Assembly: GCA_963825135.1 (NCBI GenBank)
Contig: CAWGRW010000007.1
Span: forward strand, 1 to 11,045
Source of the DNA: an uncultured bacterium
GTDB taxonomy: Bacteria; Desulfobacterota_D; UBA1144; Nemesobacterales; UBA2774
Length of the DNA stretch: 11,045 nt
Reading direction: 5' to 3'
Below are positions 3,706 through 10,927 of the stretch, piece by piece (positions within the stretch are counted from its first letter, which is position 1; every line of letters begins with the position of its first letter). Below the pieces are notes generated by a model. That model was given only the letters and a program-made list of their open reading frames with translations, had not been told where the DNA came from and did not search any database. Both the position numbers and the translations under genes were made by a program.

Positions 3706-4500
3706 ATGAGCCGTGAATCAGAGCTGAAAGGGATCATCGAGGACTTGAAGAGGCGTCTCGAATTTGAGAAATCCATGGGAGTCGCGAGGGCGCCAGTGGA
3801 AAAAAAGGCCGGGGAAGAGACCATCCCGAAGGCTCCCGGGAAAGAGACGCAACCAAAAGCTCAGACATCACCTGAAAAAAAGGACGACGCTATAAGAATA
3901 GAAGAGCAGATCGGCATATTCGACGCCTCCGCCAAGAAGATGACGCTCGAAGAGATAAGGGCGGAGATAGGGGACTGCACCCGGTGCAAGCTCCACGAGG
4001 GGAGGACGAATTTGGTGTTCGGGGAAGGGAACCCGAAGGCGAGGCTCGTATTCGTGGGGGAGGGGCCGGGGAGGGACGAGGACCTGCAGGGACGTCCGTT
4101 CGTGGGGAGGTCGGGACAGCTCCTCACCAAGATAATAGAGGCTATGGGGTTAAAGAGGGAGGACGTATATATATGCAACGTGGTGAAGTGCCGCCCGCCC
4201 GAGAACAGGACTCCAGAGCCCGACGAGATGGCGACCTGCGAGCAGTTCCTCTTCAAGCAGATTAGGTCGATAGAGCCCGGGGTCGTAGTGTGCCTAGGGA
4301 GCACGGCCGCGCAGTCCATACTTAAAACGAAACAGAGCCTCGGGAGCCTCAGGGGGAAGTTCCATCAATACGGAAGGGCGAAACTTATGGTAACTTATCA
4401 TCCTGCGGCCCTTCTCAGGAACCCGAATTTCAAGAAGCCGCTCTGGGAAGATATGCAGGTAGTGATGAAAGAGCTTGGAATCTCAAAACCGGGCGATTAG
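3706..4500 (+). CDS. udg: uracil-DNA glycosylase family 4 (Fe-S cluster type)
   Basis: 264-aa ORF with CTRCKLH, VFGEG, FVGEGPG, GRPFVGRSG, NVVKCRPPENR and YHPAALLR. AAGGA RBS-like sequence upstream. Low-complexity N-terminal extension. Confidence 0.94.
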   Translation: MSRESELKGIIEDLKRRLEFEKSMGVARAPVEKKAGEETIPKAPGKETQPKAQTSPEKKDDAIRIEEQIGIFDASAKKMTLEEIRAEIGDCTRCKLHEGRTNLVFGEGNPKARLVFVGEGPGRDEDLQGRPFVGRSGQLLTKIIEAMGLKREDVYICNVVKCRPPENRTPEPDEMATCEQFLFKQIRSIEPGVVVCLGSTAAQSILKTKQSLGSLRGKFHQYGRAKLMVTYHPAALLRNPNFKKPLWEDMQVVMKELGISKPGD

Positions 4501-4563
4501 CTCAGTGGATAGAGCGCAGGCCTCCGAAGCCTGAGGCCGGGGGTTCGAGTCCCCCATCGCCCG
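4491..4563 (+). tRNA. tRNA-Arg(CCG); CCA end not encoded (followed by CAA)
   Basis: Full cloverleaf: acceptor GGGCGAT/ATCGCCC; D arm GCTC-AGTGGATA-GAGC with the A20 arginine identity base; anticodon stem CAGGC/GCCTG with loop CTCCGAA (CCG at 4524-4526); T arm GGGGG-TTCGAGT-CCCCC; discriminator G4563. Confidence 0.97.
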
Positions 4564-4677
4564 CAATAAAATAAACTATGATAAGTATAGATTAAACCAA
4601 TATACAGAAGTTGGATTTAGTATGTAGATCGTGCGTAGTGTCCAAACAGGGGTGGCTCATTACGATGGAGAAGTGAC

Positions 4678-5163
4678 ATGATGAAGCAAGCAAAGAACAC
4701 GATTTGCCTTTGGTACAATGGCGACGCCGAAGAGGCGGCGCGTTTTTACGCCGAGACCTTCCCCGATTCATCTGTTGGCGCGGTACTCCGCGCACCGGGA
4801 GATTTTCCGTCGGGGGTGCAAGGGGACGTGTTGACGGTCGAGTTTACCGTTATGGGGATTCCTTGCCTCGGGCTCAATGGCGGACCCGCATTCAAGCACA
4901 ACGAAGCGTTCTCATTTCAGGTCGCAACTGTTGACCAAGCCGAAACGGATCGTTACTGGAACGCGATAGTAGGCAACGGTGGCGAGGAGAGTGCGTGCGG
5001 CTGGTGCAAGGACAAATGGGGATTGTCCTGGCAGATCACGCCGATTGCTCTCATCAAAGCGATAACCAATCCCGATCGCGATGCCGCCAAGCGCGCATTC
5101 GATGCGATGATGCAGATGAAAAAGATCGACATTGCTGCAATCGAGGCGGCGCGCCGCGGTTGA
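4678..5163 (+). CDS. VOC/glyoxalase-superfamily protein (PhnB-like, '3-demethylubiquinone-9 3-methyltransferase' family)
   Basis: 161 aa with ICLWY..DAEEAARFY, VLTVEFT, LNGGP.F...EAFSF, CGWCKDKWGLSWQI and AMMQMKKIDIA. GGAG RBS at 4667-4670. Start could also be 4681. Confidence 0.9.
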   Translation: MMKQAKNTICLWYNGDAEEAARFYAETFPDSSVGAVLRAPGDFPSGVQGDVLTVEFTVMGIPCLGLNGGPAFKHNEAFSFQVATVDQAETDRYWNAIVGNGGEESACGWCKDKWGLSWQITPIALIKAITNPDRDAAKRAFDAMMQMKKIDIAAIEAARRG

Positions 5164-5169
5164 GGTTGC
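5155..5169 (+). repeat. 15-nt cassette-end motif CGCGGTTGAGGTTGC, copy 1
   Basis: Identical to 6064-6078. Lies immediately 5' of the tRNA fragment, is absent from the intact tRNA, and contains the VOC stop codon. Confidence 0.9.
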
Positions 5170-5216
5170 GCCTCCGAAGCCTGAGGCCGGGGGTTCGAAT
5201 CCCTCATCGCCTGCCA
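5170..5216 (+). repeat. tRNA-Arg 3'-half direct repeat (att-like site) 1
   Basis: 47 nt GCCTCCGAAGCCTGAGGCCGGGGGTTCGAATCCCTCATCGCCTGCCA. Matches the tRNA from 4520 onward with three substitutions and ends in CCA. Confidence 0.95.
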
Positions 5217-5276
5217 AATACCGCCGATTGTGCGGCATGACGCGATATCACCGTCGATTCTGTTTTGCGCTAGCGC

Positions 5277-5305
5277 TTGATAGCGGCGATGGTACCCGTT
5301 ATCCT
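5277..5305 (+). promoter_or_regulatory. putative sigma70-type promoter for a leaderless TIR transcript
   Basis: TTGATA (5277-5282), 17 nt, TATCCT (5300-5305), 7 nt, then ATG 5313. No Shine-Dalgarno sequence before the ATG. Confidence 0.5.
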
Positions 5306-5312
5306 CGACCAC

Positions 5313-6011
5313 ATGGCTAGATGCACAGCACCAGTACATGGCCATCGCACAGCGAGCGGTCGCAGCGGCCTGCCCTGCATGTGGTGGCCGCTATCGCGGC
5401 TACGGGTCAGCTACTGGTCGTACTCGTCCCCGTCCTACTCCTCGTCGGGGAGCAGCGGGGGCGGCCGGAGCAGCGGCGGCGGGTCCGGCAGCAGCGCAAG
5501 GCCGCGCTGGTCGCGAGCCGGTTCGTCCGTGGTGTACACGCCTGCCGAGGTGCGGGCACTCACGCCGGTCCGCGAAAGCGTCGAGAAGCGAGCGCCCCTG
5601 CCTGACCTTCGGGACGTCTTTCTCTGCCACGCGTGGGACGACCGGAAAGGGGCCGCCAAGGAGCTGCACGATCTGCTCGAGTCACGCGGTGTCTCGGTCT
5701 GGTTCAGCGAGAAGGACGTCGCCCTCGGCACGCCGTTGCTCCGCGAAATCGACAAGGGACTGGCGAAGTCGCGAGTCGGGATCGTGCTGGTGACCCCTGC
5801 GCTGCTGCGCCGCCTCCAAGGAGAGGGCATCGCCGACAAAGAGCTTTCGGCACTCCTCGCGCGTGACCTGCTCGTTCCCATCGTGCACGACACGACGTAT
5901 GAAGCTCTCCGCGAAGTCAGCCCCCTGCTCGGCTCGCGAAGCGGCCTGAGCACTGCAGAAGAGCCGATGGCAAACGTCGCGGCCAAGCTCGCCGAGCTGG
6001 TCGCCCTCTAG
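5313..6011 (+). CDS. TIR-domain protein with N-terminal Cys/His segment and Ser/Gly-rich linker
   Basis: C-terminal half has TIR motifs DVFLCHAWDD, VSVWFSE, EIDKGLAKSRVGIVLVTP, DKEL (putative catalytic Glu) and LVPIVH. ATG 5313 (232 aa) preferred over TTG 5277, which coincides with the predicted -35 box. Confidence 0.88.
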   Translation: MARCTAPVHGHRTASGRSGLPCMWWPLSRLRVSYWSYSSPSYSSSGSSGGGRSSGGGSGSSARPRWSRAGSSVVYTPAEVRALTPVRESVEKRAPLPDLRDVFLCHAWDDRKGAAKELHDLLESRGVSVWFSEKDVALGTPLLREIDKGLAKSRVGIVLVTPALLRRLQGEGIADKELSALLARDLLVPIVHDTTYEALREVSPLLGSRSGLSTAEEPMANVAAKLAELVAL

Positions 6012-6063
6012 CTCTATTGTCAGGGTGGCCGGCCCGACGTCGCACAAGCGGTCAAGGCGCCGG

Positions 6064-6078
6064 CGCGGTTGAGGTTGC
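6064..6078 (+). repeat. 15-nt cassette-end motif CGCGGTTGAGGTTGC, copy 2
   Basis: Identical to 5155-5169 and again directly abuts the tRNA fragment. Confidence 0.9.
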
Positions 6079-6125
6079 GCCTCCGAAGCCTGAGGCCGGG
6101 GGTTCGAGTCCCCCATCGCCCGCCA
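6079..6125 (+). repeat. tRNA-Arg 3'-half direct repeat (att-like site) 2
   Basis: 47 nt: identical to tRNA 4520-4563, then CCA. Confidence 0.95.
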
Positions 6126-6146
6126 TTGTTTACTCAATATTTAAAA

Positions 6147-9100
6147 TCACACACTTAGTCCATTCCTTACAATATCTTCCAGACATTCAAATCTAATGCC
6201 TTTTTTTCCTGGTGAAGTGTCATACAATATCGGAACGGGATTTGAAAAAATAACGTATGGAACAATATTTACTTCTCCCAAATTGAGCTTGCAGAATTTT
6301 GAAAGCTGGTCTTTGTGCATTGAGAGCACATCAATACGAAGCAAGTGCTTTTTTAGCCGATCTGGTTTTCCATCTCTATCCTCACCCCTAAATTCCATCA
6401 ATTGCTCTGCAATTTCCTTGGAAGTTTTTGCGTAATATAAATCCTTGCACTCTATTACATATATCGATTTCTCTCCATTCCTCCAGGCTATTACATCTAT
6501 ATCACCATAGTCTCTATCAAGGTTTTGTCTTGAAATAATGGAAGCTACCTTAACATCCGAATACGCCTCATAACCCAGAGATTTAATAGAACCGGCCACT
6601 TCCTTATTGAATTTGTGTCCCCGTCTGGTTCTTTCCTTCCCGATCCATTCCCTCATTTCGGGGGAACTGCAGCGGCTTTCTTCAATGTTACATTGGTTAT
6701 ACGTATCTAGGATATAAGCCAGCGATTCCCCTACAAGACCTGCAGAAAGTATGAATCTTGAGTCCTCTGCGTCGTCTACTATTACGAATGGTTTCATAAG
6801 AAGAGATAGCCTGCGGCGGAAAAGCCACGGGTTAATATCCCTCTGCGTATAAGTGGAAGGTGGCATTGCCCAATCATTGCGGGGCTGCAATGAGAAAGAA
6901 TTGAGAATCTTAGTTGCATCCTTACCGCTACAGAGCATCCCTTTTTCACAGAACGCAATAATTTCACTTTTTCGGGCTGCGAACACAGTTTTTTGTTTTT
7001 CTTCAGCCATATTTTCTATTTCTTCCCGGAATCTAAGTAACGTCTCAGCACATACCCCAGTCTCTTTTTCAAATGCGTCTAGAAATTCTTGAGAAAAAAT
7101 CTTTGATAACTGTCTTTGGAAAGGCACATCTTCAAAATATTTTTTATACCTGTCAGCTGCTGATGTGAAACTTGTTTTTTCAACTCGAGCGGAGAGGGGA
7201 ATTAAGACTTCGTCGTGAAAAGTTTGTTCTGTTTTTATTTCCCCACTAGCGGATACCACAATTCTTGGTTCTGTTACACCTTTAGCAATGGCATCCGACA
7301 TGTTTCCAATGTGAAATAAAAGGGATGCCATTGACATGAGTGGACTCAGATCAAAGCGACCCATCTCTGCTCCGCCGTCTATAGGGCTTTCGCAAACAGC
7401 TGTTTCAACAATAATCCTGCATGCGATGTCAGCTGCATAAAATCCGGAAAAATGCTCTCTGGTAACATTATAAACATCTTCTTTGTCATGATGTAACCCT
7501 AAAATGGCTTTGGCTGATCTCTTCCATTTCTCCTTCTCAGCGGCTACACCTTCAATATTTCTTAGAGCAGTTGTTATCAAAGATTCACGATTATATTCTT
7601 TAAGTTTTCTCTTGAGGTTATCCCATGAATGGTCCACTATTTTTTCTAAGAACGAACTACATTTTTCTTTCCCTTTAATTTCCTTATAACCTATTACACC
7701 TTCTAAATGACCCAATCCAATTTTTACAAAACCTGCATCAAATTTATCAATCCGCTCAAAATCACATCTGTCAAAGACTTGTATATGTTCCCTAAATCCG
7801 TGTGCTTTAAAAAAGTGTATATACCTTGCATCTTCATTAGGGATGATTTGATCACACAACTCATCGATCTGTGAATTCTCCAAAGTATGATTTACCAAAG
7901 TAAAAAAAGCTTGTACGCATGATCGAACCAACGCTCGTTCACTTATGTTTCTTGAATTATAAAGATTGTATAAAAATGGCTCTCTCACTTGAAGCTTAAT
8001 AGTATTTACATCATGGATAACCTCCACGTCAATAAGACTATCTGTTTCTCCCGGAGGATCCTCCGGTAAATATTCGTAGTGAGGAAGAGCCGAAACATCC
8101 AGTTCATAAAGTATCGGTCCAGATATCAAATTATAGAATCTTCCATCAAGAATCGATGATATTCTATTCATCCAATTGAGGAGCGCATCCCAAATTCTGA
8201 TACTAGAATCTGAATCGAGTTCGGCCTCATCCTGTTTTAGCTCTACCCACCAAGGTCTGATTTTTGTTACCGCACAACCTGATCAACCGTCCCTTGCCTG
8301 CATCCTGATAGCTCGCAAATATAGGGATATCTGCGTCTTCAGCGAAAAAGGATGTTAAAATCTTTCTGCGTACTCTTTTAAACATCCCGTCTATGTATTT
8401 TTCACTATGCATGTCGCTGGATTGCCGCGTTGTTTGACGAACCTTCACCAAACAATCCGTTGGAATTCTGATTATGCATTCGCCTTTACCAACTTCTACG
8501 TACTCTGGAACTGGATTATAATCTGTCATCTCATACCAACCATACAGATTTAATAAACCATTAATATTGGCAATCTTCACATTATATTCAGCCATTTTCC
8601 TTCTCTGTTCCAAAAGTTTCCAAAGAGATTTAGCAATAGCGTCCGGAATCCAACCAATGGTTTCAAGGTCATGCGCTGATATGAATTCAAAATTCCAATT
8701 CGAGATTTTCTCGGACATCATTAGCACCGCCGGGCGTCCATAACCTGCTGATACTATTAAAGACAAGCCATCTTTGAAATCTTCCCTAGCGTCAGTGAGT
8801 CTTTTGCTGCGAGTATGCGCCGTTCAATTTCCTCCGATTGTTCATGTGAATGAGGTGGTGGATTATCCATACCTTCTTCTAAGAGTCCATGAAGAGTGTC
8901 TATCCTTACCAAAATATGAAGATAACGTCCCTTATCAATCTGCGCTATGACATCAAAGAAATATGCTCCAGCTATTTTTTCTGGTCGTAATTGCAGACCT
9001 TGGGGGACAGGCTTTCCCAAGATGGGTGTCTCCTGCAGAAAACTTATATATTCCCTTACATAATTTCTTTCAAAGCTGTCTGCCAGCCCCATCTGTGAAG

Positions 9101-9843
9101 CCATTCAAATATGTATCTCCGGATTGCCACACTAATAGCCGTAGGAAGAACCAAAATAATCTTATTATCATCAACAAGAAGTGGAGAACGTTCGAGGTCG
9201 GTGTTACCGAATTGTTGGTTCCGAAGATTTTCCCGGTAATTTGAATCAAATACAAATGCAGTCAAATCCTCTGTGGAAAAACCCATTCTTTCAATATCTG
9301 CCCGTGAAAAAGTCAAAGTCTTTGCCAGTCGTTTTAGAGTCTCAGTGTTAGGAACATTTATATCTTCTTTGTCATGGCTTTCAGCTATTTGATAAAATGC
9401 AGCGTTATTACGGTGAGCACTTCCTCACTAATAGACAAAAGCGCATGAATGGGCTTGAACAATGAACCAGAACCCATATTTGGAGGAATTGACTGAATAG
9501 TGTCGAGTACTTTTTGAAGAAAAAAATCGTTTCCTTCCCATAGCCCGTTATAGATGCGGAAATCCCCCCATTGAGTCATCACTCCTGCCACGAAGACGTC
9601 TTCAACCGGATCATCCATGTAGGATGCAGCGCTGATTGGATTGAAATCATTCAGCCATCTTTGAATTCTTTTTGAAGAAGGTTGTAGTTTTCCGTCACTA
9701 TGACTGAGCAAATAATGTATGAGTAATTCTATCCTGAAAGTATTTGCATGAAACCGTGGTGCAAGAAGAAGCCCGGAAACCAAGCTTGCTGATTTTATTG
9801 GATTAGCTTCTCGTATTTCTCGCGGTAATTCATTCATGATCAT
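6147..9843 (-). pseudogene. large (~1230 aa) hypothetical protein with C-terminal PD-(D/E)xK nuclease-like motif, split by four frameshifts (genuine or assembly error)
   Basis: Five collinear minus-strand ORFs (9385-~9843, 9056-9316, 8757-9104, 8227-8766, 6147-8171) have overlapping open frames and join at about 9418, 9100, 8800 and 8282, e.g. SISEEV/AHRNN and GKGRL/GCAVTKIRPWW. C-terminal GDIDVIAW...VIECKDL at ~6439-6506. Start ATG at 9843 or 9837. Confidence 0.72.
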
Positions 9844-9972
9844 CGAAATTAAATTATAATTGCAAATATGGCAAGAGACTATTTCGAAACCCTCTTTTGC
9901 CAAATATATAAGTTTGAAACAAAGGTATGCCCTAGGTCGCGAAAGCTGCACTCCTGAATATCTGACTACCCT

Positions 9973-10013
9973 AGCCTGAGGCCCCGGGGGTTCGAGTCCC
10001 CCATCGCCCGCCA
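9973..10013 (+). repeat. tRNA-Arg 3'-part direct repeat (att-like site) 3, shorter and with a 2-nt insertion
   Basis: AGCCTGAGGCC[CC]GGGGGTTCGAGTCCCCCATCGCCCGCCA. Matches the tRNA from 4528 and lacks the anticodon and the 15-nt motif. Confidence 0.93.
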
Positions 10014-10132: not shown

Positions 10133-10927
10133 ATGACTCTTCCCGTACCAGACATTTCTAAAAATCTATTCGACTTAAACGGTTTCTGCAGTATCGTTAC
10201 CGGCGCCGGTAAGGGAATAGGCTTGACTTTATCCCGGGCGCTCGCTTACAACGGGAGCGACCTTGTCCTTGTAGGCCGGAGTGCCGGTGACCTCGAGGCA
10301 GCGGCAGATTCAGTACGCGCGATAGGACGCAAAGTAAGAACCGTTGTAACCGACGTGACTGCTGAGGACGCGCCGGAGATGATCGTAAATGCAGCTATGG
10401 ATCTGAGCCGTAGAATCGACGTGCTGATCAACAATGCAGGGTTCATGACGTTCGCCGATATGCTCGAGGTCGACGATAAGACCTGGGATGATATTTACTC
10501 AGTGAACGTCCGGGCCCCGATGAGGATAATGAAGGTGGTACTGAAAGAGATGGTAAAAGCCGGGCGAGGGAGCGTAATTAATATTGGAAGCTCATGGTCG
10601 TCGCGGGCTTCGGTTTTCAACCTGGATGGCGGCGGAGTGGATTATTGCTCTTCAAAGGCGGCCCTTCAAGCTTTGACCAGGGCTGCAGCCCATGACGTGG
10701 CTCCCAAAGGAGTGCGTGTAAACAACATCGCCCCGGGAGCGGTCGACACCCCTATGCACGCAGACCACCGGGATTTGCTATACCAGTTCGTGAAACACAT
10801 CCCCCTCGGGCGTATGGGTATGGCTGAAGACCTGGCTGGAACGGCCGTGTTTCTGGCTTCCGACGCAAGCACATTCATCACCGGCCAGACGATACATGTA
10901 AACGGCGGCATGCTGATGGTGGACTGA
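10133..10927 (+). CDS. classical short-chain dehydrogenase/reductase (SDR), substrate unknown
   Basis: 264 aa with TGAGKGIG (TGxxxGxG), INNAG, catalytic YCSSK (YxxxK), VRVNNIAPG, PLGR and ITGQTIHVNGG. Confidence 0.95.
   Translation: MTLPVPDISKNLFDLNGFCSIVTGAGKGIGLTLSRALAYNGSDLVLVGRSAGDLEAAADSVRAIGRKVRTVVTDVTAEDAPEMIVNAAMDLSRRIDVLINNAGFMTFADMLEVDDKTWDDIYSVNVRAPMRIMKVVLKEMVKAGRGSVINIGSSWSSRASVFNLDGGGVDYCSSKAALQALTRAAAHDVAPKGVRVNNIAPGAVDTPMHADHRDLLYQFVKHIPLGRMGMAEDLAGTAVFLASDASTFITGQTIHVNGGMLMVD

Follow-up and report, generated by a model that had tools for sequence, protein, structure and literature searches.

A compact array of single-gene units, two with immune genes, framed by repeated 3' ends of tRNA-Arg(CCG) in an uncultured bacterium

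Islands that grow unit by unit at tRNA genes have been described under several names. In additive flexible genomic islands, tRNA and tmRNA genes act as hot spots and partial tRNA repeats lie behind the cassettes, which measure 330 bp to 42 kb and hold 1 to 63 coding sequences, according to the available text of two reports on marine and freshwater bacteria (PMC4898812 and PMC10872708); as far as those texts go, the route by which gene-sized, integrase-less pieces arrive at tRNA hot spots is left open. Cis-mobilizable elements (CIMEs) are decayed elements that keep both attachment sites, attL and attR, and accrete with newcomers (PMC5704250, in the part available), and in Prochlorococcus islands tandem tycheposons are separated by partial tRNAs and show fragmented integrases (preprint 10.1101/2020.12.28.424599, likewise in part). 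Here we analyzed a stretch of 11,045 nt from an uncultured bacterium (GenBank assembly GCA_963825135.1, contig CAWGRW010000007.1; hereafter “the window”), in which an intact tRNA-Arg(CCG) gene is followed by three direct copies of its own 3' part. These copies delimit three units, each built around one gene: a VOC/glyoxalase-superfamily gene, a lone TIR-domain gene and the anti-phage nuclease gene Upx. With a probability of roughly one half, we read this array as an additive genomic island at a tRNA hot spot, assembled by stepwise site-specific integration and then reduced by trimming and decay.

The tRNA-Arg(CCG) gene (4491..4564, + strand; ARAGORN and Rfam RF00005), which would be the integration target on the attL side, scored 73.3 bits under Rfam RF00005 against a gathering score of 29. 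In a repeat search, its 3' part was found in three further direct copies, which have their ends at 5216, 6125 and 10013 and start-to-start spacings of 650, 909 and 3888 nt; the arrangement first reported for this locus in a preliminary description made from the sequence (an intact tRNA and three repeats defining units of 650, 909 and ~3890 bp) was thus confirmed. A 28-nt tRNA core was matched four times at up to 3 mismatches, while 200 shuffles gave a mean of 0 matches and never as many as 4. The copy closing unit 1, R2 (5155..5216, + strand; attR of unit 1), is composed of the last bases of the VOC gene plus 9 nt (5155-5169) and of a tRNA 3' copy (5170-5216) that differs by 3 substitutions, located in the T arm and the acceptor; in a BLAST of the units, 5170-5211 was 95% identical to tRNA positions 30-71. 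R3 (6079..6125, + strand; attR of unit 2) is a tRNA 3' copy followed by an encoded CCA, and its bases 6079-6123 are 100% identical to tRNA positions 30-74 (45 nt). R4 (9973..10013, + strand), the shortest copy, begins at tRNA position 38: it is 100% identical to positions 47-74, and the identity reaches back to position 38 (9973) across a 2-nt insertion in the variable loop. Since among R2-R4 the Rfam tRNA model was matched by R3 alone, with 22.2 bits and so short of the gathering score, the first copy is the only real tRNA. A second tRNA gene called by ARAGORN at 5144-5216 was rejected, as no above-threshold Rfam tRNA match was found there.

In R2, in R3 and in the repeat of an island in one related genome (L001, described below), the copied segment opens at tRNA position ~28-30, on the 5' side of the anticodon loop at its edge, despite unrelated left flanks, and both R4 and a copy in a second related genome (L003) start at position 38. 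Boundaries recurring in unrelated units of two genomes argue for site-specific cutting, and the two different start positions imply more than one recombination specificity. Attachment sites in the anticodon loop are said, in an attribution to Williams in 2002, to be typical of one class of tRNA-targeting tyrosine integrases. The 3' ends of the copies also bear on the mechanism: the working tRNA gene ends in GCAA without an encoded CCA and in this differs from R2-R4 and from four of the five relatives. R3 and R4 keep the CCA-encoding end found in those four relatives while the working tRNA does not, as expected if an incoming element supplies a new 3' end. On their 5' side, R2 and R3 have a further 15-17 nt in common (5155-5169 and 6064-6078), extending the local alignment between 5155-5216 and 6064-6125 to 62 nt at 95% identity; a 43-nt string across the junction of VOC end and tRNA half (5157-5199) is found again at 6066-6108. 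An initial view of these bases as the “P arm” of one element family was revised: an alignment of homologs shows that VOC proteins natively end in IEAARRG*, so that the shared bases belong to the gene's own terminus and the 9 nt beyond it. A search for the source element of the R3 region gave only two partial matches of 40-44 nt (Thermus phage P23-77 and a Bosea plasmid), which were uninformative.

Composition sets the units apart from their surroundings. Leaving out the terminal tRNA copy of each, the GC content is 52%, 66% and 40% in units 1 (4565-5216), 2 (5217-6125) and 3 (6126-10013) respectively, versus 55% in the upstream backbone, a departure that marks the units as independent acquisitions of foreign DNA, with att-type tRNA repeats as their borders. 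The VOC and TIR genes lie on the + strand and Upx on the - strand, each with its own upstream region of 96-130 nt. Thus the earlier claim of one gene per unit with short flanks holds for all three units, but only the VOC gene is fully intact and Upx lies in five frame pieces. The further claim that no recombinase remnant is recognisable was borne out: in 4565-10013, no stop-to-stop frame of 60 aa or more (0/33) matched a tyrosine or serine recombinase family of Pfam, and neither did any of the 12 listed open reading frames (ORFs) of the window. Pfam likewise revealed neither a primase or helicase domain nor transfer genes in the array, and promoters and terminators across it showed no excess over shuffles.

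In unit 1, the VOC gene (4678..5163, + strand, 161 aa; PF06983, Pfam E 6.6e-49) is full length by comparison with 16 of 17 aligned homologs, to which it is 86-91% identical, the 17th (P0121) having an internal duplication and 77% identity. The first 85 nt of the unit form an AT-rich leader (4565..4649, + strand) with a GC content of 29% (0.294, versus 0.564 in 4650-5163), and DNA homology to plasmid VOC genes begins at query positions 86-129, i.e., from window position ~4650 onward; to judge from composition and homology, the leader and the VOC module are of different origin. Seven close homologs (P0123, P0134, P0143, P0144, P0194, P0223 and P0225) have a conserved element upstream of the gene, with a similar translation in two frames and, from the lengths of conserved N-terminal ORF extensions, an estimated size of at least 150 nt. 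The window keeps its last ~55 nt (4622-4677), behind the unrelated AT-rich leader. The element could be an unrecognised leader or a regulatory RNA; in a scan of five plasmid loci (L081, L082, L084-L086), the sequence ahead of VOC matched no Rfam family.

The VOC gene is widely distributed. Among the best 120 of 8000 proteins returned, identities were 81-91% and the source names came from several phyla (cyanobacteria, Nitrosomonas, Marinobacter, Desulforhopalus, Planctomycetes and Thiolinea), and several clusters in this set are known solely from contigs of 576-700 nt. Many large 90%-identity clusters (P0153, P0156, P0161, P0164 and others) are confined to such contigs, which barely exceed the length of the gene. 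Confinement of VOC clusters to tiny contigs is expected if the gene has many contexts or sits at inter-repeat sites that break assemblies.

Unit 2 carries a TIR-domain gene (5313..6011, + strand, 68% GC, starting at ATG 5313), the whole of which is covered by a match to the ThsB model of PADLOC (PDLC00424, E 9.1e-119), together with Pfam TIR_2. A Thoeris system pairs ThsB with ThsA (SIR2/SLOG or similar), whereas the ThsB-like gene stands alone here: Pfam and PADLOC detected no ThsA-like gene within the window, and the three plasmid copies of the TIR gene that were inspected have no neighbour annotated as such. Against all eight aligned homologs (8/8), and at the DNA level against the plasmid copies L087-L089, the gene shows two indels, +1 near 5360 and +2 near 5410, which compensate each other; the frame stays open, and ~18 residues (5360-5412), the conserved CPAC motif included, are scrambled. 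The CPAC segment possibly forms an N-terminal zinc-binding knuckle; the frame of the TIR domain is kept.

On plasmids the TIR gene is a highly promiscuous single gene. DNA identity was 68-84% in the best 30 of 212 matching plasmid records, whose hosts include Bradyrhizobium, Polaromonas, Planctomycetes and the Bacillus cereus group and cover Alpha- and Betaproteobacteria; Klebsiella plasmids account for 126 of the 212. At the three plasmid contexts inspected (L087 5003-5692, L088 and L089) it is a lone gene and the homology ends at the ORF, and on a plasmid of Bacillus paranthracis the gene has 54% GC inside flanks of 31% GC. At its right end, unit 2 closes with a remnant of a VOC 3' end (6047..6078, + strand; exact over 6064-6078, weaker back to ~6047). 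Therefore either a VOC-type unit formerly occupied the position of the TIR gene, or the TIR gene came on a vehicle derived from a VOC unit. This remnant, and the fact that the VOC module of unit 1 is cut inside its conserved upstream leader, show that the units are not clean cassettes.

Unit 3 is, on sequence evidence, a single gene in origin and now a pseudogene: Upx (6147..~9843, - strand), which was reportedly first described by Gao and colleagues in 2020. It is published as a single-protein anti-phage nuclease (PMC13099982, in the part available). Three ORF pieces match PADLOC PDLC02221 and NCBIfam NF042954 at 467, 73 and 85 bits, versus an NF042954 cut-off of 1900 bits that a full-length protein (~1240 aa) would exceed. 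By tblastn the unit is collinear with the full-length homologs P0361, P0363 and P0364 in five frame segments, the frame shifting near 9418, 9096, 8812 and 8280. Homopolymer sequencing errors are a disfavoured cause of these four shifts, since none of the sites (0/4) falls in a run of at least 6. The stop of Upx lies 21 nt from R3 and its start ~130 nt from R4. Decay thus rises with distance from the tRNA (VOC intact, TIR with a compensated frameshift, Upx with four frameshifts), a gradient that fits the proposal, made in the preliminary description, that the newest unit is the one next to the tRNA.

Variability of the site was assessed in relatives through the gene that precedes the tRNA, which encodes a family-4-type uracil-DNA glycosylase (UDG). 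A scan of the genome collection from an alignment of 30 UDGs gave at least 600 rows, and 80 loci were kept, with UDG identities of up to 71%. Five of these 80 (L001-L005) have the tRNA-Arg core within 4 mismatches, and all five preserve the order leucyl-tRNA synthetase (LeuRS)-UDG-tRNA. Their UDGs are 58-71% identical to that of the window, so they are not close relatives; across them the tRNA 3' half has 0-4 mismatches in 28 nt. What lies behind the tRNA differs in every genome, and the locus is thus not invariant.

Units occur in three of the five relatives: i) in L001, a 51-nt repeat from tRNA position 28 closes a 5.7-kb unit with outer-membrane-protein-like, LolA-like, MMPL and HxlR genes; ii) in L002, a 4.6-kb unit (sigma-54 activator and two methyltransferases) is surrounded by a 300-nt duplication running past the tRNA; iii) in L003 (11573-14806), two units follow the tRNA-Arg, the first (2.4 kb, with an Asp/Arg hydroxylase and a GmrSD-like gene split into two ORFs) reaching to a second tRNA copy that is full but degraded (49 bits), and the other (656 nt, with a DUF2281/PemK (PemK/MazF) toxin-antitoxin pair) to a partial tRNA copy. 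In L004 and L005 there was no tRNA repeat within 10 kb and no unit. Tyrosine or serine recombinases were absent 3' of the tRNA throughout L001-L005 (0/68 frames of at least 110 aa; one IS630-like DDE transposase was found, in L005). Together with the window, this gives 7 units in 4 of 6 genomes, all without an integrase, and no parent or helper element was seen in the window or the five related loci.

Three of these relatives call for separate remarks. A 427-aa gene beside the tRNA of L001 was considered as a divergent integrase and rejected: it had no match in Pfam or PHROGs, ends like an outer-membrane barrel and adjoins the LolA-like and MMPL genes. The direct repeat of L002 (3043-3342 and 7690-7989; 300 nt, 91% identity) comprises the T arm and acceptor end of the tRNA and ~270 nt downstream with a small ORF, far exceeding an attachment core, and the L002 island may therefore stem from duplication or homologous exchange. 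Behind the tRNA of L005, at 11272-20740, lies a defence-island-like cluster without a tRNA repeat, with Schlafen/AlbA_2, a DUF4143 AAA ATPase, the IS630-like DDE transposase and a Schlafen-type helicase.

On the reading that we prefer, three unrelated foreign segments would have entered in succession by site-specific recombination, presumably of the tyrosine-integrase type, between an attachment site on the element and that segment of tRNA-Arg(CCG) which begins in the anticodon loop and extends to the 3' end. With every entry the tRNA would have been rebuilt and the older unit, with the displaced tRNA 3' copy, pushed outward, so that the newest unit came to lie nearest the tRNA; R4 would then be the displaced original 3' end. 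Upx may have arrived first; a VOC-type unit would have come second, its body later giving way to the TIR gene or fusing with it, and the present VOC unit last. Most probably these arrived as larger elements and were trimmed by deletion in a small genome. Of the features of an island made by a tRNA-targeting integrase of the tyrosine type, the locus has an intact tRNA with a regenerated 3' end and a direct tRNA 3' repeat at the far end of each unit (R2, R3 and R4, and also in L001 and L003), and it lacks an integrase gene inside the island (0/33 frames in the window and 0/68 in L001-L005). Both attachment repeats being kept and the integration genes absent, the units are CIME-like, and in their present form they cannot move by themselves.

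Several observations favour trimming. The VOC remnant in unit 2 and the cut VOC leader point to deletion or replacement within the array; genes are broken both in the window and in L003 (the split GmrSD-like gene); and there is more than one class of boundary. Moreover there is scant room for arm-type sites, with 21 nt between R3 and the Upx stop and a VOC coding sequence that abuts R2. On the other hand, several points weigh against accretion followed by trimming: i) no recombinase domain or recognisable remnant was present in any of 101 frames (33 in the window, 68 in L001-L005), across 7 units and 4 genomes; were all units decayed autonomous elements, some remnant might be expected, and the tycheposon study, in its available part, did see fragmented integrases (preprint 10.1101/2020.12.28.424599); ii) three units below 1 kb (650, 909 and 656 nt) hold complete genes including their start regions, and repeated precise trimming is not the simplest account of sub-kb units; iii) R2 and R3 have the same VOC-type right end, which could equally mean that one small mobile unit arrived repeatedly; iv) the L002 island, with its 300-nt duplication reaching well past the tRNA, may have another origin; v) the comparison covers relatives at 58-71% UDG identity, the closest ones (85-91%) being known as proteins only. 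The alternative to trimming is that the units were born small.

Birth at the present size is the essence of the model advanced in the preliminary description, whose observation was confirmed and whose interpretation was partly supported. Under it, the units would be non-autonomous cassettes that move as small circles, each with one gene and a tRNA-half site, by means of a recombinase supplied in trans. We regard this as possible but doubtful. The absence of a recombinase from 7 of 7 units in 4 genomes speaks for it, as do three units of 650-909 nt packed tightly around complete genes. The cargo genes are moreover ORF-sized modules that occur in a variety of unrelated contexts: VOC proteins are 81-91% identical across phyla (best 120 of 8000), and TIR DNA is 68-84% identical in plasmids of several phyla with homology confined to the ORF (best 30 of 212). 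The VOC-type right end is present twice in the array, and a read-through VOC homolog, P0129, suggests from its single protein translation that the same 9 nt follow the VOC gene elsewhere, with divergence at the anticodon-loop position. Against such cassettes stand the mosaic make-up of the units, with their truncated pieces, and the two or three different repeat boundaries. Furthermore, tRNA-like sequence followed the VOC stop at none of 6 plasmid loci, where the contexts were ordinary, so that the idea of a tRNA half always attached to VOC was rejected for plasmid copies, and among the 240 nearest homologs of the VOC and TIR proteins none had a translated tRNA half in an ORF extension, a weak test as few ORFs extend. 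The flanks are also too short for arm-dependent integrases, if these behave as lambda/P4-type systems are said to do.

A broader form of the same idea, which we hold to be unlikely, envisages a chromosomal platform for cassettes that has no integrase of its own and recombines at the 3' half of tRNA-Arg(CCG); ORF-sized genes would come and go as sub-kb circles with a recombinase acting in trans. Anti-phage nucleases, TIR proteins, toxin-antitoxin pairs and VOC enzymes would be among the cargo of such a platform, and some of these genes are shared across phyla at 68-91% identity. If true, the tRNA-half platform would be a functional analogue of the integron in which tRNA halves replace attC sites. 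The literature searched, which covered few subscription journals, held no proof of trans-mobilised single-gene cassettes with tRNA halves.

Spread by homology without any integrase is a quite improbable alternative. RecA would loop units out across the 45-62-nt repeats, and imported DNA with such a unit would enter any genome that has the same tRNA 3' half, by a single crossover or by microhomology-based illegitimate recombination. In none of the six genomes was a recombinase found near the site, relatives differ little in the tRNA 3' half (0-4 mismatches in 28 nt), a 300-nt duplication surrounds the L002 island, and the VOC flank and the tRNA have GCCTCCGA in common at their junction, all of which agree with such a route; cassette integration at hot spots of this kind has moreover been attributed to illegitimate recombination (PMC4898812, in the part available). 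However, the same anticodon-loop boundary in unrelated units of two genomes is a signature of site-specific cutting and not of random microhomology, and the origin of the first flanked unit is left unexplained. The stretches of exact identity (28-45 nt) are also reportedly short for efficient RecA exchange.

A chimeric metagenome assembly, joining contigs of different organisms through a shared tRNA fragment, is very improbable: the lineage is uncultured with all related records being metagenome-assembled genomes (MAGs), the three units differ strongly in GC, tRNA segments are conserved between organisms and VOC genes often assemble as tiny separate contigs, but ordinary reads would span exact shared stretches of 28-45 nt since the junctions are unique on both sides, R2 has three substitutions of its own, every unit would have to be flanked by tRNA halves in its true genome as well, and structures of this kind recur in separately assembled relatives (L001, and L003 with its two units).

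The array is flanked on the left by the UDG gene (3706..4500, + strand; Pfam PF03167, E 1.6e-41), whose homologs reach 91% identity and are named as MAGs of Thermodesulfobacteriota/Deltaproteobacteria. Its stop codon (4498-4500) sits within the first ten bases of the tRNA gene (4491-4500), and the product has 264 aa versus 267 aa in most close homologs. On the right lies a short-chain dehydrogenase (SDR) gene (10133..10927, + strand; Pfam adh_short_C2, E 5.4e-55). No SDR ortholog was found beside the tRNA in L001-L005, tblastn giving only matches of up to 34% identity at unrelated loci, and the assignment of the SDR gene to the backbone is unproven.

The locus is a compact example of its kind, with three single-gene units and two immune genes at different stages of decay, and a second genome of the lineage (L003) holds a toxin-antitoxin unit of 656 nt in the same kind of frame. 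Movement of such units as mini-circles with a borrowed recombinase would, if true, account for the way in which streamlined genomes trade single defence genes across phyla. If the units are instead trimmed remains, the locus records how fast such genomes strip mobile elements down to their cargo.

Among known systems, integrons supplied the comparison made in the preliminary description. Like integrons, including sedentary chromosomal ones with defence cassettes, the array consists of ordered, mostly single-gene units, some anti-phage, with no recombinase inside. The likeness is one of analogy only: there is no attI and no intI among the 12 ORFs and 33 frames of the 11-kb window (a distant intI is possible), the boundaries are direct tRNA-derived repeats and not the imperfect inverted repeats of attC (no dedicated attC model was run), and the units are not in one orientation, Upx lying on the opposite strand and each gene having its own upstream region. 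Tycheposons resemble the locus in that they integrate at tRNA genes of a streamlined host and leave further partial tRNAs from older events, in the available part of their description; they are, however, defined by their own tyrosine recombinase and replication modules, neither of which is present here (0/33 frames).

CIMEs of the Streptococcus ICESt1/ICESt3 family resemble the present units in having attachment repeats on both sides and no recombinase or transfer gene. They are, in contrast, recognisable derivatives of integrative and conjugative or integrative and mobilizable elements (ICE/IME) that lie beside a related functional mobilising element, whereas no parent or helper is seen here and the units are far smaller. 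With additive flexible genomic islands (Alteromonas, and fGI-2 of ‘Ca. Methylopumilus’), the locus has in common that the same hot spot holds different cassettes in relatives, with partial tRNA repeats in three of the five, and that content varies between relatives, as the available parts of those reports describe. It differs from them in that i) the repeat is 41-47 nt long and starts in the anticodon loop, theirs being the last 20 nt of the tRNA in the text available; ii) all three units are single-gene and two are anti-phage; iii) the host belongs to a Thermodesulfobacteriota/Dadabacteria-like lineage, for which the literature searched, with few subscription journals covered, contained no description of this locus. 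Thus the architecture is one already published, as far as the accessible parts of the sources go, as additive flexible genomic islands, CIME accretion and tandem tycheposon remnants, and what is noteworthy in this case is its unusual compactness, with single-gene defence units, a gradient of decay and a lineage-wide lack of integrases.

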